Below are positions 3,594-35,441 of a stretch of 36,614 nucleotides of DNA, one piece after another (within the stretch, counting starts at the first letter, position 1; the number at the start of each line of letters is the position of its first letter). The notes under the pieces were generated by a model. It was given only the letters and a program-made list of their open reading frames with translations, did not search any database and was not told the origin of the DNA. The position numbers and the translations under genes are program-made. The stretch comes from Candidatus Omnitrophota bacterium (GTDB taxonomy: Bacteria > Omnitrophota > Gorgyraeia > B26-G9 > JBDRCZ01), in assembly GCA_043821285.1 (NCBI GenBank), contig JBDRCZ010000053.1:1-36614 (forward strand), written 5' to 3'.

Positions 3594-3844
3594 TTTACAT
3601 CCTCCTTTTTAACATTGACGATAACCGCCCAGAAATTGGCGCTTTTAAGAGAGAGGTCACGATAATTACGTAAAATATTTTTTATTTCCAACTCGGTAAA
3701 ATTCTTCCACATCCAGCTAATCGCTTCCCCATCGCCATAATCCATAATCCGTCTTAATACATATATACGACGTTTTCTTAAATCTATATTTTCAAATTTT
3801 ACATCCCAGAAATATTTTTTTAAAAATTTGGGTAGCCTTTTCAT
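3542..3844 (-). CDS. Small protein encoded upstream of, and overlapping, the AbiEii-like gene. It is a putative antitoxin or partner protein of unrecognised family.
   Basis: A 100-aa ORF overlaps the toxin gene and is in an operonic arrangement with it. It is K/R-rich (…RKRRIYVLRRIMDYGDGEAISWMWKNF…). No helix-turn-helix motif was confidently recognised. Confidence 0.4.
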   Translation of the reverse strand: MKRLPKFLKKYFWDVKFENIDLRKRRIYVLRRIMDYGDGEAISWMWKNFTELEIKNILRNYRDLSLKSANFWAVIVNVKKEDVKCLKKSFRETRKQFWPY

Positions 3845-9531: not shown

Positions 9532-9617
9532 ACCTATCCGCCTCCTAAGAAAATCGCCTTCTGCATCGTTTTTTCCATTTCGTGAGTTTCGTGGTTACAG
9601 TTTTTTCGTGCAACATT

Positions 9618-10265: not shown

Positions 10266-10434
10266 AAAAGGGGACAGCTACCTTTTTAATTATTTCTTCG
10301 CCACGGACTTATACGGATGAAAAACACAGATTTTTTACAATCAAATCTTTTAACCTATTTTGACAGGATGAACAGGATTTATAAGATTTTAAATAATATG
10401 TGTTGATATCGTGTCAATCCTGTCTATATTCTTT

Positions 10435-10505
10435 TTTTAACCACCAATCGCGTAAACTGTCACAAATAAATATGCTCCATTCGTGTTATTCTGTGTTAGT
10501 TATGG
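10435..10505. repeat. Palindromic CACGAAT element copy, degenerate
   Basis: The left part is ttttaaccaccaatcgcgtaaactgtcacaaataaa. The right part is ccattcgtgttattctgtgttagttatgg. Confidence 0.6.
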
Positions 10506-10578
10506 CTTAAATATCTTTATCCGTGTTCAATCCGTGGCTGTATTTTTTTCTTTTTTTATCCGCAAAGCGTATAAATGC

Positions 10579-11382
10579 TTATTTTTGCGCAGTAAAAATA
10601 ACCTCAAAAACTATATTCTTAACCCAGCCCACCTTTTTATCTAAGCGTTCAACTTTGCTCCAGTCGTTATTACGTACCAATACCCGCACTTTCATTCCCT
10701 CCTCAAGAGTAAAATGCGTAGTTGCCCGGTCAAACGGCTCAAATTTCGCATCTGCCTTTTTGGAAATAATGATTGCTTCTTTCCCTAAGACAGAAATCCT
10801 CCTCTCTAGGAAAACCGCACTCAAGACAGAAAAAACGATTAAGATACTCAATAAAATTCTCGTATAGAGCCTGTGGGTTTTAAATACTATCCCCAAAATT
10901 ATAACCAGCACAAAAGCGACATAAATTAAGCATAAAAGAACCGTAATACCGTCAATTGTAAGCTGCGCATACAAATTATCCATAAACTGCAAAAGCCATG
11001 TTTTTTTCTCCTCTAAAGGGGGCACTTTAAGCAATGACCTTGCGTATTCATAATTTGACTGCAAATCCCGGTCCCTGGGGATTAACTGCTTTGCCCGTTC
11101 ATAATTTAAAATTGCCTGCCCCAGCACACCCTGTTTAAAATAACAATTACCCAAATTATAATACAGGCTGCCGCTTTCAAACCCCTTATCAAGTAAATTA
11201 CGATATGCGCTGGTTGCCTCAGCATATTTACCCTCTTCATAAAGTATATTTGCTTTATAAAACATGTATTCCGGGGTAAAAGCAGTATCTTCGGCAAACA
11301 AAACACCGGTATTTAGCAATAAGATACAAAACGCAAATATCAAAATTATCTTATGCATATTTTTGTCTTTCCAAGTAATCAA
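10579..11382 (-). CDS. BatE-like membrane protein (signal peptide, TPR, TM segments, C-terminal SH3-like region)
   Basis: It has a signal or anchor sequence. A TPR-like segment is present (YKANILYEEGKYAEATSAYRNLLDK…YYNLGNCYFKQG…). Central hydrophobic helices follow. Its position is last in the Bat-type gene order. Confidence 0.65.
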   Translation of the reverse strand: MITWKDKNMHKIILIFAFCILLLNTGVLFAEDTAFTPEYMFYKANILYEEGKYAEATSAYRNLLDKGFESGSLYYNLGNCYFKQGVLGQAILNYERAKQLIPRDRDLQSNYEYARSLLKVPPLEEKKTWLLQFMDNLYAQLTIDGITVLLCLIYVAFVLVIILGIVFKTHRLYTRILLSILIVFSVLSAVFLERRISVLGKEAIIISKKADAKFEPFDRATTHFTLEEGMKVRVLVRNNDWSKVERLDKKVGWVKNIVFEVIFTAQK

Positions 11383-13249
11383 TAACCATCTTTATTCTTT
11401 TTAGCGTTTCCGACATATTATCTTTGTTCAGTTCAGAAGAAGAGTATCTTAATATATCACAATCCTGGAAAATTTCTTTTAATGCCTTAAGGATTTCCTC
11501 ATCTACGTTTTTTGGCCGGAGAACTTCGTCAACAATATCTATAGTTATCCCACCGGTTGAAATATGCAGTTTATTTCCTAAATATATTTGCAGGGTCTTA
11601 AATATCGTATGATAAAACTCTTCGGTTTTTCCTTCTTTTAGCAGCCGTTCTGCTTCTTTAATCCCTTGTCTTGCCTGTTTTGGTGCGCGCAGGCTGCGGG
11701 CATACCTTACATCCGTTCTTAATCGCTCACTTCGCCGATAAACGGTTAACACAGAAATCAGCAAAATTATCGGGATAAACTGCAGCATAAGAAATTTTTT
11801 ATTTTTATACAAATATGCTGCCTTCTTTCTCAGTCTCCGTGGGGCGGTTTTAATATAAATAATATCCCGGCCTAATGTTTCCGTTTTAAGTGGCGAAGAA
11901 ACCACATCTGGCGCCCCGATAATTTTCAGCTCTTCTTCTTTTTCCTGCGGTTTCACGGAGATTGCAAACGGGCCTTTTGTTATACTCTGATACTTTTCAC
12001 GATCCGGGTCAAAAAAACTAAAGGTAATTGCCGGTACCTCACAAACTTCCTCAGTCCGGGGCATAAGCACCTGCTCAAATATCTTTTTATTATCCTCTAC
12101 TTTTACCTGCGGTTCATACGTCTTAAATATATCTCCCAATTCAAGTTTGGGTAAATTTACTGTATTAAAATTACCTTTTCCGGAAACCGTCATCTTAAGC
12201 GTAATCGGGTCACCAACTTTTAGTTCACGTGGTCCGACCTGAACATCAAAATTAAAATTTCCTATTGCCCCGCTAAACCCTTCAGGTTTCCCTTGCTCTG
12301 GTAACGAAGCTATTGTAACGGGTATTTCTACGGATTTTAAATCCATGGGATATGTTTCATACCGGCCGAAAAAATCCTCAAAAATATCACTATCAAAAAA
12401 AGAAGACGGCCTTCTTTGCCTTTGCTTTCTTATGACCAGGCTGCATTTGAAGTGTGCCGGGCCAAGAACAAAATCCCCTGTCCTTATTCCAAAAATATAC
12501 GTCTTAAATTCAAAAACATTATAGAGTATCCCTCCTAAAACCTCCTGGTATTGCTTATATTTCTCAAACTCCCCAACCGAAAAACCCTCATGTTCAAACG
12601 TAGGATACTGATCAGATTCTACCTTCAAGTTGTTTACATATAATTTAATCGTCAAGGGAATAATCTCATTTAAATAAACCGGTTTCTTCCCTACCTCCAT
12701 TACCAGAAAAATCTTATCTTCCAATTGCATTGCTGATTCATCGGGTGACTGGCCGGGTATAGCCTGCGCAGCCGGTTTATCTAAAACCTCAACATTTACG
12801 GTTCCTGATTTATATGTTTGCCCTTTATAAGTAACTGAAAACGGTCCAATCGTAAACATCCCTTTTTCTACTGCCAATAATCCATAACTATACGTTATCG
12901 AACTTGTCACCTCTCCATTGACAATAGACATCATTGTCGAAGGTCCAAGATAACGCGATTCAAATCCGTTTATTTTTGGCAGATCAGGAGAAGAAACGTC
13001 CTGTGTCCCGTGAAAAGTAAGAGAAAGCTGCAAAGTTTTACCTAAGGCAACCTTAGTCCTATCCACGGCAACTTCAAAAGTTATATTTTTAGCAAAACAC
13101 GGCAGTGTCAAAACATTAAAAATCAACAGAAAAATCAGTACATTTTTGCCATTTTTGATTTGACTATTATTTTTTATTATTTTATTTTTTGATTTGTTTA
13201 CCATTTGGAATTCGTCATTTGCCTGTCCGCTAATCTTTTTGCGGAACAT
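11351..13249 (-). CDS. BatD-family protein (aerotolerance-operon type; C-terminal TM plus cytoplasmic tail)
   Basis: The BatD-type signature …ITFEVAVDRTKVALGKTLQLSLTFHGTQ…LPKINGFE…YLGPS…SIVNG… is present. A TM lies near the C-terminus (FLMLQFIPIILLISVLTVY). The tail carries the motif …FQDCDILRYSS…. Confidence 0.8.
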   Translation of the reverse strand: MFRKKISGQANDEFQMVNKSKNKIIKNNSQIKNGKNVLIFLLIFNVLTLPCFAKNITFEVAVDRTKVALGKTLQLSLTFHGTQDVSSPDLPKINGFESRYLGPSTMMSIVNGEVTSSITYSYGLLAVEKGMFTIGPFSVTYKGQTYKSGTVNVEVLDKPAAQAIPGQSPDESAMQLEDKIFLVMEVGKKPVYLNEIIPLTIKLYVNNLKVESDQYPTFEHEGFSVGEFEKYKQYQEVLGGILYNVFEFKTYIFGIRTGDFVLGPAHFKCSLVIRKQRQRRPSSFFDSDIFEDFFGRYETYPMDLKSVEIPVTIASLPEQGKPEGFSGAIGNFNFDVQVGPRELKVGDPITLKMTVSGKGNFNTVNLPKLELGDIFKTYEPQVKVEDNKKIFEQVLMPRTEEVCEVPAITFSFFDPDREKYQSITKGPFAISVKPQEKEEELKIIGAPDVVSSPLKTETLGRDIIYIKTAPRRLRKKAAYLYKNKKFLMLQFIPIILLISVLTVYRRSERLRTDVRYARSLRAPKQARQGIKEAERLLKEGKTEEFYHTIFKTLQIYLGNKLHISTGGITIDIVDEVLRPKNVDEEILKALKEIFQDCDILRYSSSELNKDNMSETLKRIKMVIDYLERQKYA

Positions 13250-13286: not shown

Positions 13287-14174
13287 TCACCAGTTTTTCT
13301 CAACCTCCGGAAAATACCCGCGTCCTCTTTCCTGTTTAATATTTCCAGTTGGTTCCTCCTGGCGATAACCTTCCAACAGCATCTTTGCTTCCTGTTCAGA
13401 CATCTCCTTTGCTGCCTCCTGAGCGTCTTCTGCCGGCTTAACTACTTTTACCTCTTCTCCTGTTTGTCCTTCCTCATCTTTTTCCTCTGCTGCCCCTGGT
13501 TCTCCTACTTTCTCTTCCGCATCCTTTTTCTCCTGATAAACCGGCTCTGCTTTCTTCTCCTCTCCTTGTTTTTCTTCATCACCAACCGTTTGTGTCTTTT
13601 CCTGTTCTGGAGCCAATTGTTCTCCCTGTTCTTGTTTTTCTTGTTCTTGCTGTCCTTTCCCCTTTCCCTTTCCTTGCTGTTGTTTTAATTTATCCAGTAA
13701 AACCTTCAACTTTTTCTCAACAAACTCGTGATTATATTTTGCATCTTCATCCTGCGGATCAAGCTCAATTGCCCGTTTATAATAATCGAGCGCTTCCCGG
13801 TAAAGATTAACTGCTCCGCTCAAATCCGTATTTTCCTTAAGTCTCGCCTGCTCGTACTTACAATTACCAATATTATAATTTGCCCGAGCCTCTAAATCTC
13901 TGTTTTCGGTTTTCAGGGCATCAGTAAACGCCTCAATCGTCTTATCATAATCACCCTTTTTATACCATGACGCCCCTTTATTAAAACTTATTATATCAGA
14001 ATCCGGCATTGCTATGCCAGCTTCATTATATTTCTTAAGCGCCTCGTCAAATTTTCCTGCATTATAAAGCCGATTCCCCGCATCTACCGCACCCTTACCA
14101 GAAGCAGCAGCACATATTGCGGCAGCAAAAAATAAAATTATACTATTTAAAAATAATACATTCCACACTTTCAT
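13287..14174 (-). CDS. BatC-like TPR protein with an E/K/Q-rich low-complexity tail
   Basis: A signal sequence is followed by TPR-like repeats (…YNAGKFDEALKKYNEA…YKKGDYDKTIEAF…NIGNCKYEQARL…YYKRAIELDP…). The acidic tail is low-complexity (…QQQGKGKGKGQQEQEKQEQGEQ…). Confidence 0.75.
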   Translation of the reverse strand: MKVWNVLFLNSIILFFAAAICAAASGKGAVDAGNRLYNAGKFDEALKKYNEAGIAMPDSDIISFNKGASWYKKGDYDKTIEAFTDALKTENRDLEARANYNIGNCKYEQARLKENTDLSGAVNLYREALDYYKRAIELDPQDEDAKYNHEFVEKKLKVLLDKLKQQQGKGKGKGQQEQEKQEQGEQLAPEQEKTQTVGDEEKQGEEKKAEPVYQEKKDAEEKVGEPGAAEEKDEEGQTGEEVKVVKPAEDAQEAAKEMSEQEAKMLLEGYRQEEPTGNIKQERGRGYFPEVEKNW

Positions 14175-14206
14175 TTCATGACCTATCTTTTATTGTTTAA
14201 CCTCTC

Positions 14207-14288
14207 TTTTAACCACTAATTACACTAATTGTCACGAATCGTTAATTCTTTTTTCATTCGTGTAAATCTGTGTTATTCGTGGTTAAAA
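14207..14288. repeat. Imperfect palindromic intergenic element (about 82 bp), the clearest copy of the CACGAAT-heptamer family
   Basis: The left arm is ttttaaccactaattacactaattgtcacgaatcg. The loop is ttaattcttttt. The right arm is tcattcgtgtaaatctgtgttattcgtggttaaaa. The arms are reverse complements apart from a few mismatches. Confidence 0.8.
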
Positions 14289-14397
14289 TATTATATTAAT
14301 CTTTTGAATATAACACCTGAACTTATCAACCCGAACCGACACCGTTATATGACGGATTGGGGCTGGTGAAATAATTTGTTAGGCATTTATTATTTCT

Positions 14398-15336
14398 TTA
14401 TTTCCATAAAGATTCTTGTGTCCAATCATTTATACTTTTACTATGTTGATCCCAATATTTATATACAACATTTATATTTTTCGAATCCACCCATTGTTTG
14501 TTGAGGTTTTCTAAGTGATCAAATTGTGGGGTTGGAAGAGGAAAATAAGAGCCTTCAAATAGTAATGATCCATATATAAAAGAAGCAGTTTGGTAAATTG
14601 CTTTCCAACAATTTTCTAAGCGGTCAATAGAAATACCTTTTTGAGTTTTAGTTAAGCTTTTTCGAGTAGATGGAGCTGCTCCGTGGGCTATAAATTTATC
14701 TACATATTTTTTTGTATCTTTGCAAATATTTAATTTCTTTTCGAGATATCGAAACCAGGTTTTATTAATTAAATCGGTACGTTTTCTTCTGGTAGATTTA
14801 ACGTTAGATAATTTGTCAAAATTTTCATGTGCTAGTTCTGATGTTGGCCATGCTTTAGGTCCCTTTGAGGCTATCCAACCAGTTCTTAATGATTTAGATT
14901 TAGGAGTTGAGTCATAGGGTAAGCCATCATATGCAACATAGTTTTCTCTTGTTAAAAGATGCCTGTGTTTTTCTATATCAGAAGTTATGCTTTGCAAAGA
15001 AATTACGGCACGCTTAGGGTTAGGGTTCGAGGGGGGTTTTTCAATTAATCTTCGAATTGCAGTTGATTGAGTTGTTGCAAAGCCAATGTAAAATAAACGA
15101 AGTACAGAAGAGTTAAAAGCAACGTTGACTATGGGCTGTTCCATGGCCAATTTCCTTAAGTCATCAATAGTACGAAATAATACAAAATACCAAACATTCC
15201 AACTAATTTGATTCCAAATAGAGTTGGCGTCTTTTCCAATAAACCATTTAATCCATTGGCGCCTTTTTTTTCTAAATTCTTTCGTACTTCCCTTATCGGC
15301 AATATCACATTTTTTTAGTCTATATTTGTAACCCAT
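14398..15336 (-). CDS. Hypothetical protein of unrecognised family, encoded by an AT-rich gene inserted between BatC and BatB
   Basis: A clean 312-aa ORF is present. It has no TM segment or signal peptide and no motif I could assign. It is flanked on both sides by copies of the CACGAAT palindromic elements. Confidence 0.55.
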   Translation of the reverse strand: MGYKYRLKKCDIADKGSTKEFRKKRRQWIKWFIGKDANSIWNQISWNVWYFVLFRTIDDLRKLAMEQPIVNVAFNSSVLRLFYIGFATTQSTAIRRLIEKPPSNPNPKRAVISLQSITSDIEKHRHLLTRENYVAYDGLPYDSTPKSKSLRTGWIASKGPKAWPTSELAHENFDKLSNVKSTRRKRTDLINKTWFRYLEKKLNICKDTKKYVDKFIAHGAAPSTRKSLTKTQKGISIDRLENCWKAIYQTASFIYGSLLFEGSYFPLPTPQFDHLENLNKQWVDSKNINVVYKYWDQHSKSINDWTQESLWK

Positions 15337-15433
15337 TTATTTTCCTTATCCTTTGTGTCTAACATAAAACACAGTTGCCCGGCACGCTTTCATAGCGGGT
15401 AACGGTTAATTGTAGTAGCTGGTTATATTCCTT

Positions 15434-15620
15434 TTTTAACCACCAATTGCACGAATTATCACGAATAATTTTTATTCTCACACGGAGTCGCAGAGTTCAC
15501 AGAGTTTTTTATCTTTTAACCACGAAAGTTACGAAATACACAAAAAAAATGCTTTTATTAAATGATTTTCTCATCCTCAACGTATTTTTAACTATTTCGT
15601 GCCTTTCGTGGTGAATAAAA
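15434..15620. repeat. Cluster of CACGAAT-family arms (two left arms and one right-arm-like segment)
   Basis: The segments are ttttaaccaccaattgcacgaattatcacgaataat (15434-15470), ttttaaccacgaaagttacgaaatacac (15515-15545) and ctatttcgtgcctttcgtggtgaat (about 15595-15620). Confidence 0.6.
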
Positions 15621-15688
15621 ATTTTTCATTTTTTTCTCAGTGCCTCTGTGTCTCCGTGTGATTATCTGTTTTTTTTATTTATAAACAA

Positions 15689-16687
15689 TTATTTTCTCCG
15701 CGGAACTATAATGGGGCAAATCAACAACAAAACAAACGCCACAAAGAGTGGTATCTGAAACCGCTCTTCATACTGCTTTCGCATCTTACTTTCCAACTCT
15801 CGCTTTTCCATTTTAGCGAGTTTTTGTTCATAAATCAAATCCAACCCGAATTCCGCGCCTCTGGCGCGCACATAACTGCCGCCGGTATTTAAGGCAATCT
15901 TTTGTAATGTAACCTCATCCAAACGCGTCTTAACCACATTACCCTGTTTATCCTTAAGAAACGATTTATTTCCGCTTTCATCGGTTATCGGAATAAGCTC
16001 TCCTTCATTAGTCCCGATACCGATACAAAATATTTTTATCTCCTCTTTTTTCGCCTCTTCCGCTGCTTTAACCGGGTCGCCCGCATGATCTTCGCCGTCA
16101 GTAATCAGCACGAGAATTTTATATTTCTTCTGCCCGCCCTCATAACTTTTAACTGCCTCTCTTATTGCGCTGGAAATTGAAGTACCTCCTTTAGGGATTA
16201 TCTCCGTATTAAGATTATCCAAAGAAAGCAAAAACCCGTTATAATCTACGGTTAACGGACACTGCAAAAACGCACTACCTGAAAAGGCAATCAAGCCAAT
16301 TCTATCCCCTTTTAGTTTTTTTAGCAAATCCAGCACCGCCATTTTTGAACGCTTTAGCCGATTCGGCTTCACATCTTCCGCAAGCATACTCCGGGAAGTA
16401 TCAATTGCAATCAAAATATCCAACCCGCTTCTTTTCACCTCTTCCCAATGAAACCCCCACTGCGGCCGCATTAAGGCCAGACAACAAAAAACAAGCGCTA
16501 AAAAAGTAAGAATTATTTTTAACCTTTCCTTCTTTCGGTTCAAAGAAACCAACAATTCATTCAGCAGTTCTTTATCGGCAAAGCGTTCCAAAAGTCTTTG
16601 CTTTTTTCTAACCGCCCATAAATAAAAAACTGCTAACGCAAAAACCAGCCACAACATATACACCGCATTTATATTAGCAAATCTCAT
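15689..16687 (-). CDS. BatB-like vWA-domain membrane protein
   Basis: Two N-terminal TM segments are present. The vWA MIDAS motif is …LIAIDTSRSMLAEDVKPNRL…. Further vWA blocks are …IGLIAFSGSAF…LTVD… and …ILVLITDGEDH…. Confidence 0.85.
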   Translation of the reverse strand: MRFANINAVYMLWLVFALAVFYLWAVRKKQRLLERFADKELLNELLVSLNRKKERLKIILTFLALVFCCLALMRPQWGFHWEEVKRSGLDILIAIDTSRSMLAEDVKPNRLKRSKMAVLDLLKKLKGDRIGLIAFSGSAFLQCPLTVDYNGFLLSLDNLNTEIIPKGGTSISSAIREAVKSYEGGQKKYKILVLITDGEDHAGDPVKAAEEAKKEEIKIFCIGIGTNEGELIPITDESGNKSFLKDKQGNVVKTRLDEVTLQKIALNTGGSYVRARGAEFGLDLIYEQKLAKMEKRELESKMRKQYEERFQIPLFVAFVLLLICPIIVPRRK

Positions 16688-16821
16688 ATCACACCTAATC
16701 TAAACATTTGTGGTTTTCTGTTTTTTTAACCACCGAGAACACAAAGTCCACAGAGAAATTTTATAAGTAACCTTTGCATTCTATATTTTAATACTTTTAC
16801 ATTGTTTTATATCTACTACAC

Positions 16822-16905
16822 TTTCACCACTAATTACACGAATTGTCACGAATAAAATAAATATACCCTATTCGTGTAACTCTGTGTTATCCGTGGTTTA
16901 AAAAT
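16822..16905. repeat. Palindromic CACGAAT element copy
   Basis: The sequence is ccactaattacacgaattgtcacgaataaaataaatataccctattcgtgtaactctgtgttatccgtggtttaaaa. It has the same architecture as the 14207-14288 copy. Confidence 0.75.
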
Positions 16906-17212
16906 ATCTTTTAGTCTTATCTTTTTTATCCGCAGCTCTATTTTATTTTTTAGCTACGCTACACGGATAAAACACGGATTTTTTAATAATAAAATCTTAA
17001 ACTATTTTCTGACAAGATGAACACGATTTACAAGATTTTTAAATATATTTATTTTTATCCTTTTATCCTGTTTACCTCGTTAGAAAATGCCAACTTACCC
17101 TATTAAAAAAATAAACCCTTCCAACATGATTATTACAAAACGTTTTTACTGACAATGTTATCTTTATTATTTTCTAACGGGGTTTATCGTGTTAATCTTG
17201 TCTATGTTTTTT

Positions 17213-17303
17213 TTCATTCGTGTCAATTGGTGTTATTCGTGGTTAAAACGTTTTTAGTTTCGTCTTTTCTTATCCGTGTTCAATTCGTGTCTATCCGTGG
17301 TTC
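17213..17303. repeat. CACGAAT-family right arm plus the TCCGTGTTCAATYCGTG variant
   Basis: The sequence ttttcattcgtgtcaattggtgttattcgtggttaaaa is followed by tatccgtgttcaattcgtgtctatccgtggttctg. Confidence 0.65.
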
Positions 17304-17328
17304 TGTAATTGCATTTCGCGTTGTCAAT

Positions 17329-18324
17329 TCAGGGTATTCTTCTCAGCACCGTATTACCCAACACAATCTCTAAACATATCAAAACCACCGCCGGAATCAA
17401 AAACAAATAAAACAACTCTTTATACTCCATATACCCTTTTTCTTCAATCGGAGTTTTTTCCAGCTTATCGATTGTTTTATAAATCTCGCGCAAAGACTGC
17501 GTATCCGTTGCTCTAAAATACTGCGCATTAGTTTTCGCGGCAATTTTGATTAAACTATCTTCGTCGATATCTATTTCAACAGACTGATATACAGTATTTC
17601 CAAAAAAATCTCTTGCCGGATAAGGCACCAGGCCTTTACTTCCTGCACCAATAGTATAAACCTTCACCTTTAGTGCCTGCGCGGCCTCAGCCGCGGTAAA
17701 CGGCGAGACCTTACCGGAATTATTCCTGCCGTCAGTAAGTAAAATTACCACCTTACCTTTGGCTTTTGTATCTTTCAGCCGGTCCAAAGACGACATTATC
17801 CCTGAGCCAACCGCGGTACCATCTTCGACCATACCGATTTTTACCCTTTCTAAATTCTGCAGCAGCCAGCCATAGTCTAAGGTAAGCGGGCAAACCGTAT
17901 AGGCACGGGAGCCAAAGACCACCAGTCCAATACGGTCATACTGCCGGCCGTTTATAAAATCAGTAACTACGTCTTTAACAACCTCCAGCCGGTTTTGCCG
18001 CTTATTCCCCAGTTTAAAATCCTCCGCCAGCATACTTGTAGACACATCAACTGCGAGCACAATGTCAATCCCCTCGGTTATAATCCTGGTTTCTTCCAAT
18101 GCCGACTGCGGACGAGCTAAGGCAATTACAATCAACAAAAGGGCGGCGATGCGTAAAAATATAATATTTTTACTTAATCTTACCTTAAAAGACGGTTTAA
18201 GCCCCTGCAGCAACTCACCCGAAGAAAAAATCACTGCCGGTTCTCTTTTTCTACGTTTCTGATAATATCCCGCAGCTAATACCAGCAGCAATAATATTAA
18301 AATCCAGGGATCATTAAAATGCAT
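17329..18324 (-). CDS. BatA-like vWA-domain membrane protein
   Basis: TM segments lie at the N- and C-termini. The vWA MIDAS motif is …VLAVDVSTSMLAEDFKLGNKRQNRL…. Further vWA blocks are …IGLVVFGSRAYTVCPLTLD… and …VVILLTDGRNN…. Confidence 0.85.
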   Translation of the reverse strand: MHFNDPWILILLLLVLAAGYYQKRRKREPAVIFSSGELLQGLKPSFKVRLSKNIIFLRIAALLLIVIALARPQSALEETRIITEGIDIVLAVDVSTSMLAEDFKLGNKRQNRLEVVKDVVTDFINGRQYDRIGLVVFGSRAYTVCPLTLDYGWLLQNLERVKIGMVEDGTAVGSGIMSSLDRLKDTKAKGKVVILLTDGRNNSGKVSPFTAAEAAQALKVKVYTIGAGSKGLVPYPARDFFGNTVYQSVEIDIDEDSLIKIAAKTNAQYFRATDTQSLREIYKTIDKLEKTPIEEKGYMEYKELFYLFLIPAVVLICLEIVLGNTVLRRIP

Positions 18325-18514
18325 TATAAATAATCCTTTGTTGGTTTTGTCAAAAACTACCGATATTTAATAAACATCCATAGGTTACAGGCAATCATAG
18401 ATGCCAAAGAGAAAAACGTTTGTTGGATACGGTTACGACTCTCCGCCAATTCCTTCATAAAGATTAGCTGATCTATGACTTTGTAATGAAAAATTATAAA
18501 TAAAAAAGTTCTCT

Positions 18515-19568
18515 TTATATTGCGGTACCCAACCTGTCCTGAGTAAAACAAGGAGAAAATTTTAAAAGGTGTTGATTTTTGGTTAAATATTCCTTAACCT
18601 TTTCCCTCATATGCACATAACCTTGCGCCAAAAAACCTCCGGTTCCACAACAAGGATCATAAACCGTCTCACCAACGTTAGGATCAATAACCTTAACCAT
18701 TATGCGAATAACTTCTCGCGGAGTAAAAAATTGGCCTCCGTCATTATTCTTAGCGCCCATATTCAGAAGCAAACCTTCATAAACTTGAGACAAAGTAAAC
18801 ATATGCGTATCGTCAACCTGCTCAATGGAAAGTTGATTAATCTTATCTAAAATATCCCAAAGGTTTCTTTCGGTATCAATACCGGTTTTCTCCACCGAAG
18901 AGAATACCTCACTAATTACCTTTTGACGAGATGTTGCGCCAGTCCTTTTCTCTAATTCTCTTAAATGAAGAATAAGCTCGCCATTGACAAAAGACATAAA
19001 CCGTTCTATTTTTGCCCTGGGCAATTTTCTCTAAGACCGCGCGTATGGCAGCGTCTTGATAATAACGCCTACTTGCCTCGCCACGTGTATATGGAACCAG
19101 AAGAGGCTTTGTCTTTTCGCTATCAAGAGAAAACCCCATTCCTTTTTCGTAACGGGAGCGTAATTCCTCTGGGGTAGGAATTTTATCTATGACTAAGGGT
19201 TCAGATGTTTTGCCGGTAAAACTATCGTATTCTACAAATAAATCTCCGTTACAAGAAAAAACAAAAGGCACATTATTCAACCGTGCATATTTCTTGGCCT
19301 GTTCAAGACCTTTATCTACTGGCTCATCACTCTTTTTAGCTTCGATTAAAGCAATAGAAATTGGCTGAGAGCTAATATTGACCCGGATCCGCAACAGATA
19401 ATCGGTTCTCCCCTTTTGTTTACGCCGAGGCTGACCTTTAATAATTTCAACTCCTCTTTCAGTTTCTTCGCGCCTGATAAGGTCTTCAGTCCAACCTCTT
19501 TTATGAAGCGCTGAATCGATAAATTTTGCCCTGGTATCTGCTTCGCTCAAATATTCTGCGTTATTCAT
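18515..19568 (-). pseudogene. Remnant of a restriction-modification gene. An HsdR-N/Mrr-like nuclease N-domain is joined to the N-terminal part of an N6-adenine methyltransferase. It is frameshifted and truncated at the 3' end.
   Basis: ORF 18912..19568 reads MNNAEYLSEADTRAKFIDSALHKRGW…RRYYQDAAIRAVLEKIAQGKNR, an HsdR N-terminal signature. The overlapping ORF 18515..19024 (TTG start) reads …GGQFFTPREVIRIMVKVIDPNVGETVYDPCCGTGGFLAQ, which is MTase motifs X and I. It then stops. No NPPY motif or target-recognition domain follows. The two frames can be joined at the A5 run in GGCAAAAATAG. Confidence 0.6.
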
Positions 19569-19885
19569 CTTTTATCAATCCCTCATCCGCAAAACTATAA
19601 TAATTATCATCTCCGATTATAACGTGATCCAGATAATTATTTATTCGTCCTCTTTACTTATGATTTTTCCACCACAATACCGGTAGATATTCAATCCTAC
19701 ACAAGGTGCTGGTGGCGTTCCGGTTCGTTGTCCGGTTAATTTTGTGTTTACTTCAAGGCTTATGTTTGCCTTGCCTTCCAATGCATCGAAAAACCGCCAG
19801 CCGGATTCTTCCAATAACTTATTTTTTTATATGCGTGCTTTTGCCTCTTTTGCCATCCGCTATCTTCCATTCCAACAATTTTGGG

Positions 19886-20461
19886 TCAAAGCATATCCGA
19901 TAAATCTACGGGAGCACGCATCCCTGCTGTAGCTTCTTCTTTATCAAAATGCTCCGGCTCAAAATCTCCCGCCCATCCTTTCATTTCTTCATATTCTTCA
20001 TGTTTAGGGTCGGCGAGTATTTTAAGCAATTGGTAATATCCGGGTGTTGATCCACAATCTTCCGGTGGACACGCGCGGGCGCCGTCAATACAACAAGGAT
20101 ATTTCATTCCTTTCCGTACAGGCTCTATTGCTTCCAAGATTATCGTATGCTCCCAACTATCACCAAAGTCATATGTATAGCTGAGTTTTGTCTTATCCTT
20201 AGAAAAATAATCGCTGATTTTCTTATCCTTTTCATTCCATTGTGGCGGGTCTCCAAATTCACACGCTTCCTCGCTTGCATCGCCTATTCTGAAATTTCCG
20301 GCATTGAATTCATGTAAATGTGAATTTGTCCAGCCCATCGCTTCCTGTATCATAAGATGAAACTGATAGAACGTAATATCGCTCTTAACCTCTATCATTC
20401 TCCATAGTTGAGGTAAAATATCATCAAGAACAATCTTAAACCGAAATATTTGCTTTGCCAT
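19886..20461 (-). CDS. Plasmid pRiA4b ORF-3 family protein
   Basis: Family motifs are present: …LWRMIEVKSDITFYQFHLMIQEAMGWTNSHLHEF…YTYDFGDSWEHTIILE… and the C-terminal …CIDGARACPPEDCGSTPGYYQLL. An AAAAGGAGGTG ribosome-binding site is present. Confidence 0.75.
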   Translation of the reverse strand: MAKQIFRFKIVLDDILPQLWRMIEVKSDITFYQFHLMIQEAMGWTNSHLHEFNAGNFRIGDASEEACEFGDPPQWNEKDKKISDYFSKDKTKLSYTYDFGDSWEHTIILEAIEPVRKGMKYPCCIDGARACPPEDCGSTPGYYQLLKILADPKHEEYEEMKGWAGDFEPEHFDKEEATAGMRAPVDLSDML

Positions 20462-20755
20462 ACATCCACCTCCTTTTTAAATCAAATGAAACATTATTCG
20501 TGCCATTTATCCGCGATAAATCCGTCATATTTGTGAATATTCCGCCAAATATAATTCCGCCACAAGATCGAATATCCGCCATCGTATTAGTGGAGGACAC
20601 TGGCAGGCAGACAAATGCTCTGCCCACCAACCGGTAAGTAAACTACTTCGAATCTTTTAATCTTCAAATCTTAGAATCTTCCAATCTTGTAATATTCGAA
20701 TTTTCTATGCTCAATACTCGATACGCAATACACATTACTAACTAAATCTTCATAC

Positions 20756-21778: not shown

Positions 21779-21876
21779 GACGCAAAGTTCGCAAAGATTT
21801 TTTAACTACAGATGATCGCCGATAAAAAAATACCGGTGATCACAGATTGTAAAACAACATTTAAGCATTTTTTTAG

Positions 21877-21972
21877 CCACGGATTCACACGGATAAACGA
21901 CAGACTTTTTAATAATCAATTTGTTTAACCTCATTTTTTATCAGTGTTCAATCCGTGAAAATCTGTGGTTTT
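21877..21972. repeat. CACGGAT-variant palindromic element
   Basis: The left part is ccacggattcacacggataaac. The right part is cagtgttcaatccgtgaaaatctgtgg, an inverted arrangement of the same heptamers. Confidence 0.65.
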
Positions 21973-22325
21973 GTCTTTTCTTTTACTTTGCAACACGTTG
22001 CATCATTTCTTGTAACCCAGATAAGAAAGAATCTATTTTCTAACAACAAATAGCACAAATATAAAATCTGATTTTATAATTTATTCATGTAAGAAGACCC
22101 AGCATTATTCGTTATTTTATCTTATTACAAATTAATGCGCAAGAAAAAATTTGGTAGGTGTGTATTTCTCCCTTGGAATTTTAATGCATATTCAGGACAC
22201 AATGTACATTAAAAAAGGAACTAAATGGCTGTTTGTATTTCTTCACCAGCCTTATGTAATTCTCCGATGGTGGGGGTTACTGGCTGTATAGTGCACTAAA
22301 GCAGGGTCTATATATTGTTTAACAG

Positions 22326-23552
22326 CTATCTGTGGAGCGTTTCTTCGGGTAACTGTGTTATAAACCGCGTTTTTTCTTTCTTCAATATATCTTGTTGAAC
22401 TGTCTCCTCTGCTCCTTTAAGTTTTTGTATGAAAACATCGATACTATTTGCACTATATGAGATTAATGCCCAATAGGAAGTGATTATCAAAAGGTCTCCT
22501 TTGGCAGAAAAAGAAATAGTATTAAATATATCTGTTTCTTTCACATGAGATAAAACATTCCGCAAAGACTCATCATGGACATTCATAGCAACCGCATAAG
22601 TAGCAATTATCCATTGTTGCTTGAGCTCTTCCGGAATAATATCTCCGAGAACTCTTTTGTAGTACTGTATCACTTTTTTAAGTGACTCATCATGGCCATT
22701 CATAGCAACCTCATAAGTAGCAATTACTAATTGTTTTTTTAGCCTAAAATCAAGTCCTTCTTTTTGCATTCCAAGTGCTTTCAGGTAAATCTTTATCGTC
22801 TCATAAGGAGTAGTGTTAGCTCTTACACAATAAAACGTGGCTATGGCAAGATTTGAACGCAATAACTTTTCTTCCTCATCACTTATATCAAGTTCTCTCA
22901 GATAACCTTCATATATATCTCTTAATTCACCAACCTTTGCTAAGACATACTTTGCTGTAATAATTTGCTTTATTCTTTCTAGAGTAAATCTGCCTTCTAT
23001 CCACCTCCAGTCATATTCCCTGCCGCCAAAGTTCCCATCTATAGGCAAATTATATTTCTCAATCTCTCCTTTATCAGTATATCGTAATGACAATCTTACT
23101 TCATATTCCAACACTAATACCCCGATTAGCCCTTTCTTTGGCTCAATATCAGGATATATCCTTATCTTTATGTCGCCTTCGCATATTTCTCCTGCATATA
23201 CAAGACCGTTTATAAGTGCATGAGCATAGTTCCGTTTTTTCGTTTCTTTGTATTCACGCTCCCAGAATTTCATGAATCTTTTATAACTTGCAGCTTCTGT
23301 TGCAATATCCCCTTCACGTGGAGACGAAACATCTGTTATTAGCTGCTCTGGCATGCGTCCTTGCGTATACAATTTAAATAATTCTTGGACTTCAGGGGTA
23401 TCTGTTTCTACGGCTGGGGCAAGATGGTTGTGCAGGCCTTTTAAACTACCTCCGGCTGCCCAAGAAATATCCATACATAGAAAGGCGTTAATTAATATAA
23501 TTGCAATTATTTTAAATAAAATTTTGGTTTTCATGTTCCACATAATTAACAC
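22326..23552 (-). CDS. Hypothetical secreted or anchored protein with internal tandem repeats of about 38 aa
   Basis: The N-terminal hydrophobic leader is …KIIAIILINAFLCMDISWAAGGSLKGLHNHLAPAV…. The repeats are LKKQLVIATYEVAMNGHDESLKKVIQYY / LKQQWIIATYAVAMNVHDESLRNVLSHV. No family was recognised. Confidence 0.6.
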   Translation of the reverse strand: MLIMWNMKTKILFKIIAIILINAFLCMDISWAAGGSLKGLHNHLAPAVETDTPEVQELFKLYTQGRMPEQLITDVSSPREGDIATEAASYKRFMKFWEREYKETKKRNYAHALINGLVYAGEICEGDIKIRIYPDIEPKKGLIGVLVLEYEVRLSLRYTDKGEIEKYNLPIDGNFGGREYDWRWIEGRFTLERIKQIITAKYVLAKVGELRDIYEGYLRELDISDEEEKLLRSNLAIATFYCVRANTTPYETIKIYLKALGMQKEGLDFRLKKQLVIATYEVAMNGHDESLKKVIQYYKRVLGDIIPEELKQQWIIATYAVAMNVHDESLRNVLSHVKETDIFNTISFSAKGDLLIITSYWALISYSANSIDVFIQKLKGAEETVQQDILKKEKTRFITQLPEETLHR

Positions 23553-23849
23553 CTACGACCAACATAATGATAAATATCCCGCCACAAAGATTGGCGGACA
23601 GGCAAATTCCAAAATCCCCGCCACACCGCATCAGTGGGCAGGCCCTCCACAAAACATCGGCGGGCAGGCAATGAATCTCTAAATAATTCAATCAAAGAAT
23701 CAAAAGGCAAAATGACAATTGAAAATTAAAATATTTTTTTTAACTTTTTCAGTTTTTCTTCGCGGCCTTCGTGGTAAAATTTTATTTTCGTGTGTTTCGT
23801 TTGTTTTTTCTGTAAATAGTAAACACAAAAGTTGACCACGTCAACTTTT

Positions 23850-25463
23850 TTAGATTGCCTGTTCTACCCCTTCTAATTTATTCACCTGCATAGAACCAAG
23901 TCTTTCTGTTAAAGATAAAACACCATGTAAGATATGTGATAGAATTGTGCGTGATAAACTATTTTTTTCTATAGGGCGGCCCATTGCTTGCAACAAACAT
24001 CGAGGGCCACCTTTTAGGCACCCGGCAACAATCGACTCAATCGGGAAAATTTGTTCAAAACCTAAATCTCGATATATCTGAGCTACAAATTGGTCTAACT
24101 GTGGTATTTCATATTGCGGTATAATAATAGACCGCTTTATTTTCCCATTCCCCGTATCTGGATAACAATCCATCACTACATTTGTATAATACAGCCCAAA
24201 TGGATTATCGGCAAAATCAATTGGCAAAGCAGGAACCCGGCGGACAGTAATTCCTTCTGCCTCTAAACTTTCCCTCACTCTTTCTAATTCCTGAACATAC
24301 TCAGATTGTTTAGCCTTTTCAATTTCTTCAGGTGTTACATCTAAAAATCCACGTAGTTGCTCGCGGGTAATATTAATAAAAGAACTCGACGCTATATTTT
24401 CAATTACTATCTCTTTTTCTTCTGGAGTGAGTGCAGCAATAATTTCCAGTGCCTTTATAGGATCAGCCAAAAGACTAGTATGCTCCCCATATTTTGTCTT
24501 ACCAATAGGTACGTGATATCGGTCATTATGTATATCAGGGCAGTCTAAAACAATAACTTGCCTTCCTGTTACTGCCTCGATTTTTCTAATAGCTTCCTCT
24601 TCTGTTAGAACCTTTTGACTTGCTATATTATAACAAGAATAATGTACTGTCTGTTTACCTACATACACATACGAACCATCAGCAGTAACATCCCCACCTT
24701 GCATGTCTAATGTCTTATCACTAAAATTATTGTCTACGATTGCATCCCAAGCATCTGTATTCATAATCTGCATGCCTACAGATCTATCAAGCCCTGTCCC
24801 TGCATCGCCCTTTATTGGAACTACAGAATATTGTTTGGTCTTTTGATTTACTAATACAATATATGGGTCTCTTGCCCACGATGAAGAAAATCCTCCCTTC
24901 ATAATAATAAAACGTAACCTCTGCTCTAAATTCTTTATATTTTTTCTTCGAAGTCCTCCCAGTGTTAGAGAAGCGCTGAGTTCAGAATTTGTAACCACTA
25001 TAAGTTTTACATCATCTCTTAATACCTCGGCCAACCTTCCTGCCATAATCGCTCCCATCTCATCCCCAACTTGAAATATAGCTGCTTCCATCATGCTATT
25101 AGAATCAGATACAATTTTAAATTCTGTAAGGTTACTTATCTTATGCGGATTTGTAGGATTGGCAATAAGTTCTGGTGGCACCTTTGGAATGGCAGTCTCT
25201 ATCTTTGACCTCGCCCTATCCAAAAATTCCAAAAGTTTCTTTTTATCAGCAAGCTCCGTTGCTACGTGTGGCACTATGCCGATACCCGCAGCCAACAGGA
25301 ACAGAAAACTTCTCCGTGAGATACAGCCGGTTGTTCGATGCTCCTTCAGTATACTCAACACCTCCCGGTATAGTCTCTCCAGAAAACTTTGAATTCCCTC
25401 AAGTAGTCCCCCCGTGACATTTTTGGCAACGGTAGGCTTGAGATCGGGCCCGGCAACACTCAT
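23850..25463 (-). CDS. Agmatine deiminase / peptidyl-arginine deiminase (PAD_porph-type) family enzyme with a Tat-type signal
   Basis: A twin-arginine motif GCISRRSFLFLLAAGIGIV lies about 45 aa from the annotated start, so the start codon is probably further downstream. A WARDPY block (the agmatine-deiminase WxRD motif) is present. The C-terminal catalytic Cys context is …KGGPRCLLQAM…. Confidence 0.65.
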   Translation of the reverse strand: MSVAGPDLKPTVAKNVTGGLLEGIQSFLERLYREVLSILKEHRTTGCISRRSFLFLLAAGIGIVPHVATELADKKKLLEFLDRARSKIETAIPKVPPELIANPTNPHKISNLTEFKIVSDSNSMMEAAIFQVGDEMGAIMAGRLAEVLRDDVKLIVVTNSELSASLTLGGLRRKNIKNLEQRLRFIIMKGGFSSSWARDPYIVLVNQKTKQYSVVPIKGDAGTGLDRSVGMQIMNTDAWDAIVDNNFSDKTLDMQGGDVTADGSYVYVGKQTVHYSCYNIASQKVLTEEEAIRKIEAVTGRQVIVLDCPDIHNDRYHVPIGKTKYGEHTSLLADPIKALEIIAALTPEEKEIVIENIASSSFINITREQLRGFLDVTPEEIEKAKQSEYVQELERVRESLEAEGITVRRVPALPIDFADNPFGLYYTNVVMDCYPDTGNGKIKRSIIIPQYEIPQLDQFVAQIYRDLGFEQIFPIESIVAGCLKGGPRCLLQAMGRPIEKNSLSRTILSHILHGVLSLTERLGSMQVNKLEGVEQAI

Positions 25464-25663
25464 CTCCGCATCCCCCGCTTCCCCATATAACCTGTAAAAT
25501 TTTCTATATTTTCAGTATTATCTAACCTTATGGCTGGGGCAAGGTGGGTATGGAGAGATTTAAGGCTGCCTACCGCGGCCCAGGCAATGTCCAAGCAGAG
25601 AAAGGCATTCACTAATATTATGGCGGTCAATCTGAACCAAATTGTACGTGTCAAATTATTCAT
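25460..25663 (-). CDS. Small ORF encoding a copy of the N-terminal leader module of the 408-aa protein, possibly a remnant
   Basis: The product (67 aa) reads …TAIILVNAFLCLDIAWAAVGSLKSLHTHLAPAI…. This is about 70% identical to residues about 15-47 of the protein encoded at 22326..23552. Its stop overlaps the deiminase start (ATGA). Confidence 0.4.
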   Translation of the reverse strand: MNNLTRTIWFRLTAIILVNAFLCLDIAWAAVGSLKSLHTHLAPAIRLDNTENIENFTGYMGKRGMRR

Positions 25664-26152
25664 ATGTTATGTCCAATGTTTTTTGAGTTTCTAATTGACC
25701 TAATTGCTCTAATCTACTAGAAACTCAAAACCACAATTAAAATTTAGAGGTTTTTTTATTCTATTTTACCTTTTTACTTTTGACTTGTACCTTTAATTCA
25801 TTCGTGAAGATTTGTGTAATTCGTGGTTGAAAAATAAAAAATATAACTACTTTTCGACAAGATTTACCTCATAAGAAAACTTCACTTGACACTGTTTTCT
25901 TATACTTGGTCTATTTTCTTTAGCTTTGTTTTAAATATATTGCCAATAATTTTAAAATCTATTTAAAAAACTATTTTTAAAAGTATACCATATATTTCGG
26001 ATTTTTCAAGGGTTTGGCAAAATTTTTTTGGTAAAAGGTGTAAAAGGTTAGCTCTTATCTGAACGGCTAATTTCCTCATTCAGATTTTAGATCGTTTAAA
26101 GCCTGCGGAAATTTTTTCGTTCTTTTTTGATGGGAAATAAAATAAGACAAAA

Positions 26153-26232
26153 CCACGGATAAATACAGATTGGACACGAATAAAAAATGAGATCAAATCA
26201 TTAGCCTTTTAAAATCCGTGTTAATCCGTGGC
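26153..26232. repeat. CACGGAT/CACGAAT-variant palindromic element
   Basis: The sequence is ccacggataaatacagattggacacgaataaaa … aaaatccgtgttaatccgtggc. Confidence 0.6.
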
Positions 26233-26247
26233 TATATTCTCTTTTAA

Positions 26248-27294
26248 TTACTTTTCTGCCTGATCCACAGCTGCATCCGATTCTTTCGCAGGATTTTTAA
26301 CATCACTTTTTGGCAGCTGATAAAAAATCTCAACAATCTGCTCTTCCAGTGCCTTTTCCAGCAAAGACTGAGTAAGTGCCTGCTGTTTCTTCTGCCGGTA
26401 TTCATATTCCACCTGATTTTTTACCTCGTTAAACTCTTTTTGACGCTTTGTGGTTTTACCATCGTCTCCTTTAACCTCTTCGACATATTTATCTTTATTA
26501 GCATTATAATAAAGCTTGAGGTCATCCGGGGTAATTTTTAATTCCTTTTCGATTTCCTGTTTCAGCAGCTGCTCAACCGCAAACTGTTTTTTAACCTGCT
26601 CAAAAAACTCTCGCGCCGCAGTATTATTATCCAGTCCAAGGCGTTTTGCTTTTAAATACAACACCTCACTAGCCACATATTGCTTAATAAAATCATATCT
26701 TGCGCCCTCAGTCTCATAATTTTTCCTCAGCCACTCCGGCATCCGGTCCATGGCATTATTTATATCCGTCTCGGTAATCTCCTCATCACCGACCTTAGCA
26801 ATAATATTTCCCATTTTCTCTTCCGGTTTTTCTAAGGCAGTACGGGTTTTAAGTTCATACTGCGCCTGCGTAGTCATACCGGCCTTCTCCAGTGCCGCAA
26901 TAACCTTCTGATTTAACTCGGCAATAAAACCAGCATTTTTATCCAACATCTCCGCGCGAAAGTAATAACTCAAGGCCTTTTCATACTCATATAACTCCAG
27001 ATACAAATTACCGAGCAAATAAGCCGTCTTGGCTAATTCTTTTCTCTCTTTTCTCCCCGCTGCCGTTAAATAATCCTCCAGCGCCTGGGCCGCTTGTTTT
27101 TTTAGGCCTTTGACCATAAGCTGATTAGCATATTCAAGCTGGTCTTCGACTGACCAGTTTCCCGGTTGTCCAACCGGCAGAGAAATCCTGCCCGGAACCT
27201 GTAAAACTAAAACCGCCAAAACTACGATACCGATAACAATTATCATATTTAACACGGGGATTTTTTTCATCATCTCAGCGCAATCTCCTTTCAC
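26248..27294 (-). CDS. Membrane-anchored protein with TPR-like and SurA-N/PpiD-like chaperone-type regions
   Basis: An N-terminal TM (IIVIGIVVLAVLVLQV) is present. TPR-like helices follow (…AYLLGNLYLELYEYEKALSYYFRA…). The segment …ITPDDLKLYYNANKDKYVEE… is typical of SurA N-terminal-like domains. The gene overlaps the DUF58 gene by 20 nt. Confidence 0.6.
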   Translation of the reverse strand: MKGDCAEMMKKIPVLNMIIVIGIVVLAVLVLQVPGRISLPVGQPGNWSVEDQLEYANQLMVKGLKKQAAQALEDYLTAAGRKERKELAKTAYLLGNLYLELYEYEKALSYYFRAEMLDKNAGFIAELNQKVIAALEKAGMTTQAQYELKTRTALEKPEEKMGNIIAKVGDEEITETDINNAMDRMPEWLRKNYETEGARYDFIKQYVASEVLYLKAKRLGLDNNTAAREFFEQVKKQFAVEQLLKQEIEKELKITPDDLKLYYNANKDKYVEEVKGDDGKTTKRQKEFNEVKNQVEYEYRQKKQQALTQSLLEKALEEQIVEIFYQLPKSDVKNPAKESDAAVDQAEK

Positions 27295-28153: not shown

Positions 28154-28258
28154 ATATACCTATACTCTCCTATTATCTTCCTTTGAAAATTTCTAATTGC
28201 TTCAACCTGAGCGAGCCAGAACCAAACACAATCACGCCACTTTTGGCTCGTTCAGGTT

Positions 28259-28299
28259 GTTATATAAAAACCTACGGTTTTCAAGCTTTCCCTTTTATT
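28259..28299 (-). promoter_or_regulatory. Conserved 41-bp promoter/operator box upstream of the DUF58 gene, containing the palindrome AAAACCTACGGTTTT
   Basis: The plus-strand sequence is gttatataaaaacctacggttttcaagctttcccttttatt. It is identical to the box at 29446-29486 at 40 of 41 positions. In the minus sense it reads TTGAAAACCGTAGGTTTTTATATAAC. A 16-bp stem-loop (28203-28259) lies between the box and the ribosome-binding site. Confidence 0.5.
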
Positions 28300-29383: not shown

Positions 29384-29445
29384 GATATTTCCCCTCCCTA
29401 CCTATCCGAGCAAGAACAAAAAAACTGTTCTTGCTCGTCTATCTT

Positions 29446-29486
29446 GTTATATAAAAACCTACGGTTTTCAAACTTTCCCTTTTATT
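29446..29486 (-). promoter_or_regulatory. Second copy of the conserved 41-bp promoter/operator box, upstream of moxR
   Basis: The plus-strand sequence is gttatataaaaacctacggttttcaaactttcccttttatt. A stem-loop CCGAGCAAGAACA/TGTTCTTGCTCG (29406-29437) lies between the box and the ribosome-binding site GGGAGGGG. Confidence 0.5.
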
Positions 29487-35436: not shown

Positions 35437-35441
35437 TTTTA

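Follow-up and report, generated by a model that had tools for sequence, protein, structure and literature searches.

The stretch analysed here (the window) is a complete contig of 36,614 nt from a Candidatus Omnitrophota metagenome-assembled genome (MAG). Its minus strand carries, between the BatB and BatC genes of a bat operon, an open reading frame (ORF) for a 312-residue protein. We read this element as an AbiU2-like gene of cassette origin that was inserted in the operon, and assign that reading a probability of about 0.7. It is carried by the homology of the product to HEPN_AbiU2 proteins, by the adjacency of BatB and BatC in relatives, by the integron cassette arrays in which homologs are found and by attC-like sites at both ends of the ORF.

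A lineage-specific insertion between BatB and BatC

The ORF occupies positions 14398–15336 of the minus strand and begins with ATG. It is a real gene, as an earlier note on this DNA had proposed from the strength of the reading frame, and its product is identical to the NCBI protein ABH952_06290, annotated in the same Candidatus Omnitrophota MAG. The neighbours on the two sides are a BatC-like tetratricopeptide repeat (TPR) gene (13287–14174) and a BatB gene with VWA and BatA_N domains (15689–16687). The window proteins were mapped onto genomic loci with BatB homologs, 74 in total, of which 24 are from Omnitrophota (57–71% identity). Wherever the available flank suffices, the relatives show the order MoxR–DUF58–(g26248)–g20756–BatA–BatB–BatC–BatD–BatE, with gaps far shorter than those of the window. 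In each locus whose flank is long enough, all 24 from Omnitrophota among them, BatC directly follows BatB, and none of the 74 loci contains a relative of the 312-residue protein. The 1.5-kb segment between BatC and BatB (14175–15688, minus strand) is without counterpart in these relatives. Because every informative relative has BatB next to BatC, the ORF is a lineage-specific insertion, and the single-gene insertion suggested earlier is borne out. The gene order and strand of the operon are kept across it.

The composition of the ORF is foreign to the contig. Its GC content is 0.331, against 0.41–0.42 in the adjoining genes, which agrees with the AT-richness noted before. The GC content at third codon positions (GC3) is 0.236, the minimum among 28 ORFs (the second lowest value is 0.303), and the coding-strand GC skew is –0.04, versus +0.10 to +0.40 in all other minus-strand genes. 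The ORF is intact over its full length. Compared with a 76%-identical homolog, the ratio of nonsynonymous to synonymous substitution rates (dN/dS) is 0.15, indicating that the gene is under purifying selection.

Relationship to AbiU2 and the altered HEPN motif

Scanned directly, the 312-residue protein (the query in what follows) has no significant match in Pfam, NCBIfam, PADLOC or PHROGs. A profile search against PDB sequences found nothing, and the structure search proposed in the earlier note, made with Foldseek against the PDB, returned nothing below E=1. To this extent the statement that the protein matches no recognised domain stands; the description of the gene as an orphan does not. 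The query has 122 homologs at E≤0.01, mostly of 300–340 residues, and a profile search of 1.84 billion cluster representatives (50% identity) yielded 1488 at E≤1e-3, of which 653 reach E≤1e-30. Where the source names them, homologs are labelled as Omnitrophota, Syntrophales, Alphaproteobacteria, Caldisericaceae, Desulfobacteraceae and a Nitrososphaerales archaeon.

The domain assignment comes through intermediates. Two homologs that are 33% identical to the query (P0106 and P0110; E about 1e-50, 99% of the query length covered) score 39.7 and 41.3 bits, respectively, on HEPN_AbiU2 (PF18734), above its gathering score of 26.8, and this family is matched by 22 of 30 aligned family members, with no other family matched. 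Taken alone, the query lies under the threshold. As judged from these alignments, the ORF product is a divergent relative of AbiU2, an abortive-infection protein of Lactococcus and one of those that Anantharaman et al. 2013 (PMC3710099) placed in the HEPN superfamily. Like HEPN_AbiU2 proteins and the AbiU2 of the L. lactis AbiU system, the query and its homologs are stand-alone proteins (about 310–340 residues), and clade homologs adjoin restriction-modification (R-M) and toxin–antitoxin (TA) genes; for the query itself an all-α structure is predicted. Unlike HEPN_AbiU2, the query is sub-threshold on Pfam and has Val in place of Arg in the catalytic motif, and conservation in its clade is dominated by the segments TRENY..YDGLPYD, HxxFD and RxRxD. 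All 19 family-invariant residues are present in the window copy (R61, N75, G85, Q90, I94, S113, T129, R130, D137, G138, P140, G159, H170, F173, D174, R184, H218, L259 and W295).

The canonical HEPN catalytic motif is Rx4-6H. In the canonical branch of the family it takes the form R-N-K-F-I-[AG]-H (Rx5H), and the query has V212-D213-K-F-I-A-H218 at this place; more generally, a conserved x-[DN]-K-F-I-A-H motif occupies in the query's clade the position of the R-N-x4-H motif. Of 112 close homologs, 97 have V-D at the start of the motif and 8 have R-N, and the histidine is invariant. Among the 50%-cluster representatives, the position of the arginine is held by V, A, S, T, G or R (by a crude pattern count). 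The earlier remark that the protein has no catalytic motif is therefore half right: the HEPN arginine is gone, and the histidine is present in its KFIAH context. Because Arg is replaced by Val with the His kept, canonical HEPN RNase chemistry is not assured. The invariant residues R61, R130 (in TRENY), R184 (in RxRxD) and H170 (in HxxFD) would be candidates for a re-wired site.

Homologs in integron cassettes

The attC sites of integron cassettes have the architecture R''-L''...L'-R', in which an R'' box (RYYYAAC) and an R' box (GTTRRRY) enclose an imperfect hairpin with extrahelical bases. Homologs of the query at 43–76% identity were found in integron cassette arrays. In 14 homolog loci the stop codon is located within an R'' box (xCATAAC) that opens a hairpin ending in GTTRRRY. 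At the other end of the gene, GTTATGG, GTTATGC or GTTAGAC boxes lie 7–24 nt before the homolog ATG and end an imperfect hairpin. In three loci (L075, L079 and L082) the distance from the end of the upstream gene to the ATG is about 86 nt, a constant spacing that is accounted for by the attC site of the preceding cassette. A conserved partner gene upstream was considered for these three loci and rejected, as the genes are mutually unrelated and have no trace in the window. Tyrosine-recombinase fragments are located divergently upstream in L079 and L082.

An alignment of 17 attC sites contains the R''/R' and L''/L' stems and a bulged base, with covariation in 6 of 11 pairs. Applied to 82 homolog loci, the covariance model built from this alignment (home-made, not that of IntegronFinder) gave 69 matches at E≤0.01. 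All of them share the strand of the gene and they form arrays of up to 8 sites; most of these matches come from sites outside the training set. The same model gave 4 weak matches in a control of 91 kb of relatives' bat loci. As read from the match coordinates, about 19 of about 30 close-clade loci have an attC match immediately next to the gene. The sites occur only in the clade closest to the query, the canonical R-N branch being mostly without them. On these site predictions, the query's clade circulates as integron gene cassettes.

The surroundings of the homologs are variable accessory regions. They include McrBC (in an archaeon), HsdR/DUF4411/ArdC/ParB, IS3 with a relaxase, and HicB, Gp49/HTH and DUF4258/HTH modules. 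In a second Omnitrophota MAG (GCA_030695925.1; L086:163–2571), the AbiU2-like gene overlaps a downstream MNT-type nucleotidyltransferase gene (NTP_transf_2/Polbeta). The two lie within one cassette between strong attC sites (28.6 and 38.9 bits); another cassette comes next, and after it mreB/mreC. In a Nitrososphaerales archaeon MAG (L088:356–6836), a 49%-identical homolog directly follows McrB/McrC and precedes a DUF2971 gene, and no attC-like flanks were found at this locus. The archaeal context indicates that the clade crosses domains and is also present in defence islands outside integrons.

attC-like sites at the ends of the window gene

When the window was scanned by the attC model with filters off, the two flanks of the ORF were among the six best matches, in the orientation of the gene. 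The downstream site (14308–14384, minus strand; 12.1 bits, E 0.53) is the third-best match in the window. It consists of an R'' box, GCCTAAC, located 13 nt after the stop codon, an imperfect hairpin and an R' box, GTTCAGG or GTTATAT. The segment from GCCTAAC to GTTATAT spans 77 nt and folds at –18.4 kcal/mol, with a z score of –0.9 for the single-stranded DNA (ssDNA) fold. The R''-L'' part of the site matches the locus of the 76%-identical homolog (L084; GTCTAACAAATCACTCCACCGG) and a further locus, L085, and the pattern G[CT]CTAACAAAT.A.T.CACC.G is common to the downstream flanks of the window gene and of L084.

The upstream site (15357–15428, minus strand; 8.9 bits, E 3.7) is a decayed remnant that extends from an R'' box, ATATAAC, to an R' box, GTTAGAC, which ends 20 nt before the ATG. 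Its ssDNA fold has a z score of +0.14, without a significant hairpin. The 3' part of the remnant, CAACTGTGTTTTATGTTAGAC, matches the end of the upstream attC site of L084, CCACTGATTTTTGTGTTAGAC, and the GTTAGAC box is identical in the two loci; L084 has a strong attC hairpin (z –4.3). Between this box and the ATG is a leader of 20 nt (15337–15356, minus strand), similar in length and composition to the 21-nt leader that follows the same box in L084. A Shine-Dalgarno-like AAGGA is located 6 nt 5' of the ATG. We found no σ70-like promoter upstream of the ORF on its strand and no terminator in its flanks. The GTTAGAC box followed by a short, promoterless leader forms a 5' boundary of the kind expected for a cassette. 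Neither a convincing small ORF in the flanks of the gene, a partner ORF within 14175–15688, nor an Rfam family in 13500–17500 was found.

Neither match is significant singly. The significance of the two sites derives from their position, their strand and their similarity to L084, and not from their scores. Matches this strong occur in the control at a rate of about one per 23 kb, both strands together. As a rough estimate, a pair of such matches, correctly oriented and located no more than about 100 nt from the two ORF ends, would be expected by chance about once in a million.

Three attC-like matches on the same (minus) strand were also observed near the end of the contig, at 34288–34362 (12.4 bits), 34755–34822 (8.3 bits) and 35745–35812 (16.8 bits, E 0.034). 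Small ORFs in this region, which include a DUF4160 (35442–35711) and DUF2442 (35206–35436) pair, are separated by these sites and by a repeat unit of ~200 nt (34765–34969 and 35755–35912, 88–91% identical). The region 34288–35912 resembles a short array of cassettes, of the type termed CALIN below, at a distance of about 20 kb from the ORF.

Proposed origin of the insertion

We propose that a cassette, composed of the TTAGAC boundary, the 20-nt leader with its ribosome-binding site, the ORF and its attC site, was inserted in the BatB–BatC spacer, and that the attC site of the preceding cassette arrived with it. A cassette together with the attC site of the cassette before it amounts to a small unit of the kinds described as attC-site clusters that have no integron integrase (CALIN) and single attC sites lacking integron integrases (SALIN). 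An integron integrase that acted outside an integron is the probable agent of the insertion, the alternative being that a rearranged array left it behind; the attC sites would have decayed afterwards. CALINs are attC-bearing cassettes without an integron integrase, and small ones with two attC sites are the commonest class (IntegronFinder 2.0, PMC9024848). Isolated cassettes, as SALINs, have likewise been documented, as has insertion by IntI at genomic GWT (attG) sites (Loot et al., bioRxiv 10.1101/2022.09.11.507474). The element in the window resembles these units in its cassette size (~1.05 kb), its attC-like sites, the lack of a nearby integrase, its intergenic location and its orientation with host transcription. 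It differs in its attC sites, which are weak or decayed and were identified by a home-made model. Palindromic repeats (described below) now separate the cassette from both bat genes and obscure the insertion junctions, and with them any GWT target.

Integron cassettes are transcribed from the cassette promoter Pc. With no promoter of its own and lying on the operon strand, the window ORF would be transcribed in a similar way, by read-through from the bat promoter.

Several observations weigh against the interpretation of the element as an AbiU2-like cassette. Both attC-like sites are individually weak, in their scores and in their folds. The window contains no integron integrase or attI site, and no tyrosine recombinase is found among its ORFs of at least 100 residues; since no integrase is present, the element is classed as CALIN/SALIN-like and not as an integron. 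The query itself scores only 12.0 bits (E 0.15) on HEPN_AbiU2, below the gathering score, and it lacks the catalytic Arg of Rx4-6H, as do the 97 close homologs with V-D at this place. In addition, PADLOC run on 30 family members gave no match except for one borderline hit to MkoB (E 0.0099) in one member.

Possible functions of the AbiU2-like protein

The role that the earlier note had guessed for the gene, in abortive infection or defence, is the best-supported function, as suggested by the HEPN_AbiU2 homology and by the homolog contexts (McrBC, HsdR, TA modules and integrases). The protein would be a single-gene abortive-infection or anti-phage effector that acts on RNA, as its family and the contexts of its homologs suggest. 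We consider the odds that the 312-residue protein has an anti-phage function to be roughly even. Chromosomal integrons are rich in streamlined defence genes, those of HEPN-like proteins included (bioRxiv 10.1101/2024.07.02.601686). The closest functional precedent, compared by description, is HNPBCG_15845, a single-gene integron cassette of Vibrio mimicus MB461 whose product is dimeric, contains a HEPN AbiU2 domain and protects against T4 and T7 (bioRxiv 10.64898/2026.03.17.712381). That cassette is located in a Vibrio chromosomal integron with an integrase, whereas the window copy is isolated in an Omnitrophota operon of housekeeping type.

In most respects the element is of the expected kind for accessory genes, a fairly ordinary insertion of a defence gene. 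Two aspects make it mildly interesting: an Arg-less motif is conserved in a large clade that no source names, and the insertion site lies within a conserved bat operon of Omnitrophota. Sources that name members of the V-D-K-F-I-A-H clade give them no functional name. A bolder, decidedly tentative idea is that this clade of more than 100 sequences may be a catalytically re-wired offshoot of AbiU2, an Arg-less single-gene defence effector that was spread across bacterial phyla by cassettes and, in the window, domesticated into the bat operon for operon-driven expression. An unannotated hypothetical protein becomes a testable candidate: a small single-gene AbiU2-related cassette without the canonical HEPN Arg, missed by PADLOC models and flanked by attC sites in about two-thirds of the close-clade loci examined. 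In addition, the element provides a clean instance of a cassette of integron type left stranded within a conserved operon of a poorly studied phylum, and fits the recently described spread of cassettes outside integrons.

The main functional rival is a toxin, by virtue of the HEPN-MNT-like pair in L086. The protein would then be the toxin of a HEPN-MNT type TA or addiction module that retains cassettes, rather than a defence effector, and the window copy would be a solo toxin, tolerated or inactivated. The overlap of the two L086 genes within one attC-bounded cassette is consistent with this idea, as are the frequent occurrence of TA modules in cassette arrays and the HicB, Gp49/HTH and DUF4258/HTH modules that adjoin other homologs. 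However, nearly all homologs are single-gene units with mutually unrelated neighbours, an MNT partner is present only in L086, and the flanks of the window gene hold neither an MNT gene nor any other small partner ORF. The window gene is moreover under purifying selection without a partner. We therefore regard the toxin as an unlikely alternative to the defence effector.

The same constraint bears on the idea that the ORF is a functionless hitch-hiker, that is, a cassette remnant, or an artefact of assembly or strain variation, in which an insertion present in a fraction of the population was joined in by repeat-driven assembly. The decay of the attC sites, the flanking repeats that could promote mis-joins, the MAG origin of the contig and the occurrence of three separate insertions in one bat operon could each be taken in its favour. 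The retention of an intact frame with 19 of 19 family-invariant residues at a dN/dS of 0.15, the Shine-Dalgarno-like sequence at the right distance from the start codon and the preservation of operon order and strand across the insertion argue against it, and make it quite improbable.

CACGAAT palindromes in the intergenic spacers

Palindromes with a CACGAAT core lie on both sides of the ORF, at 14207–14288 and 15431–15619, where they had been described before. The former belong to a complete element of ~85 nt (14204–14288) between the cassette and BatC, with the organisation TTTTAACCAC...CACGAAT-loop-ATTCGTG...GTGGTTAAAA. Its 33-nt arms (14207–14239 and 14256–14288) are 82% complementary, and its ssDNA fold has an energy of –17.6 kcal/mol and a z score of –6.9. 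The latter, between the cassette and BatB, form a cluster of arms of the same family (15431–15619) that contains a left arm (15431–15466), a nested pair (15516–15546 and 15585–15615) and a right arm (15593–15619). A second, unrelated palindrome crosses this cluster (15478–15495 and 15644–15661).

The repeat family extends well beyond the ORF. In the window CACGAAT has 18 occurrences, where 3.9 would be expected, and 0 of 100 shuffles reach 18. Of the 17 intergenic spacers, 9 contain the core CACGAA/TTCGTG, with 26 occurrences in all, compared with 5 in about 26 kb of coding sequence, so the bracketing that the earlier note had treated as a mark of the ORF is not specific to it. Full or half units are located at 10432–10511, 14204–14288, 15431–15619, 16818–16902, 17209–17248 and 25793–25832; the right arm is present in 5 copies at 73–100% identity and the left arm in 4 copies. 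The core is about six times rarer in relatives' bat loci, where its density is about one sixth of that in the window. The BatB–BatA spacer (16688–17328) measures 641 nt, versus 0–60 nt in most Omnitrophota relatives, and contains palindromes at 16818–16902 and 17209–17292 and no ORF. A spacer of this length, full of palindromes and free of an ORF, indicates that the repeats expand spacers on their own.

The elements are best described as a genome-specific family of intergenic repeats resembling repetitive extragenic palindromic (REP) sequences or miniature inverted-repeat transposable elements (MITEs), and not as part of the cassette. They share with REP and MITE repeats an imperfect hairpin of ~80 nt, multiple copies and a strongly intergenic distribution, and differ in that the window contains no REP-associated tyrosine transposase (RAYT) or other transposase. 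With ends of the form TTTTAAC...GTTAAAA, the palindromes were also considered as attC sites and rejected, as the attC covariance model gives no match to them. No CACGAAT was found in L084–L087, four loci for three genes: one locus each for the two closest homologs, and two for the gene of the second Omnitrophota MAG.

The earlier note had suggested that the ORF was delivered with the palindromes or captured between them. It is most improbable that the ORF is cargo mobilised or captured by them as a composite MITE-like or REP-bounded unit: the palindromes stand on both of its sides, are strongly over-represented and recur in several spacers by the other two bat-operon insertions (20497, 23768–23787 and 25801–26175), but they also occupy cargo-free spacers (the 641-nt BatB–BatA spacer, 9532–9617 and 10266–10578), are not matched termini (one complete hairpin on the left, a nest of several on the right), are not matched by the attC model and are missing from L084–L087, the clade homologs being bounded by attC sites instead. 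Under the cassette interpretation, the CACGAAT palindromes would have colonised many spacers of the contig, including the two new ones made by the insertion.

Other features of the operon and contig

The bat operon of the window begins with a MoxR ATPase gene (28388–29383), followed by DUF58 (27275–28153), g26248 and g20756. BatA (17329–18324) is located between g20756 and BatB, BatD (11351–13249) follows BatC, and a BatE-like TPR/SH3 gene (10579–11382) is the last in the order. The MoxR gene is bracketed by the two copies of a 59-nt direct repeat (28241–28299 and 29428–29486; 88% identical) that bears no relation to the CACGAAT family.

The segment 14175–15688 is one of three lineage-specific insertions in this operon, the others being 18325–20755 and 21779–26247. 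The insertion at 18325–20755 separates g20756 from BatA, which are adjacent in relatives, and contains a PRiA4_ORF3 protein gene (19886–20461) and overlapping R-M fragments (HSDR_N, 18912–19568; N6_Mtase, 18515–19024) that are probably parts of a decayed gene. The insertion at 21779–26247, between g26248 and g20756, contains ORFs for proteins of 408 (22326–23552) and 537 residues (23850–25463). Both have a low GC3 (0.30) and no Pfam match, and are missing from relatives' operons; CACGAAT-family repeats are present in the spacers adjoining this insertion.

Elsewhere on the contig, a gene for an AbiEii-type nucleotidyltransferase toxin (2967–3593) overlaps that of an upstream DUF6922 protein (3542–3844), and the two are a probable type IV TA or AbiE-like defence pair. 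The region 2–1150 contains four tandem copies of a 276-nt unit (72–79% identical) and coincides with a plus-strand ORF of 290 residues (278–1150; GC 0.50, no Pfam match); it may represent a repetitive protein or a non-coding array at the start of the contig. At the opposite end (36494–36614), the translation (..AILDRIVHYSTIIKITGYSYRAKN) resembles the C-terminal end of an IstB helper ATPase of the IS21 type, an assignment made by reading only, and such an IstB-like end could explain the break of the contig at this position.

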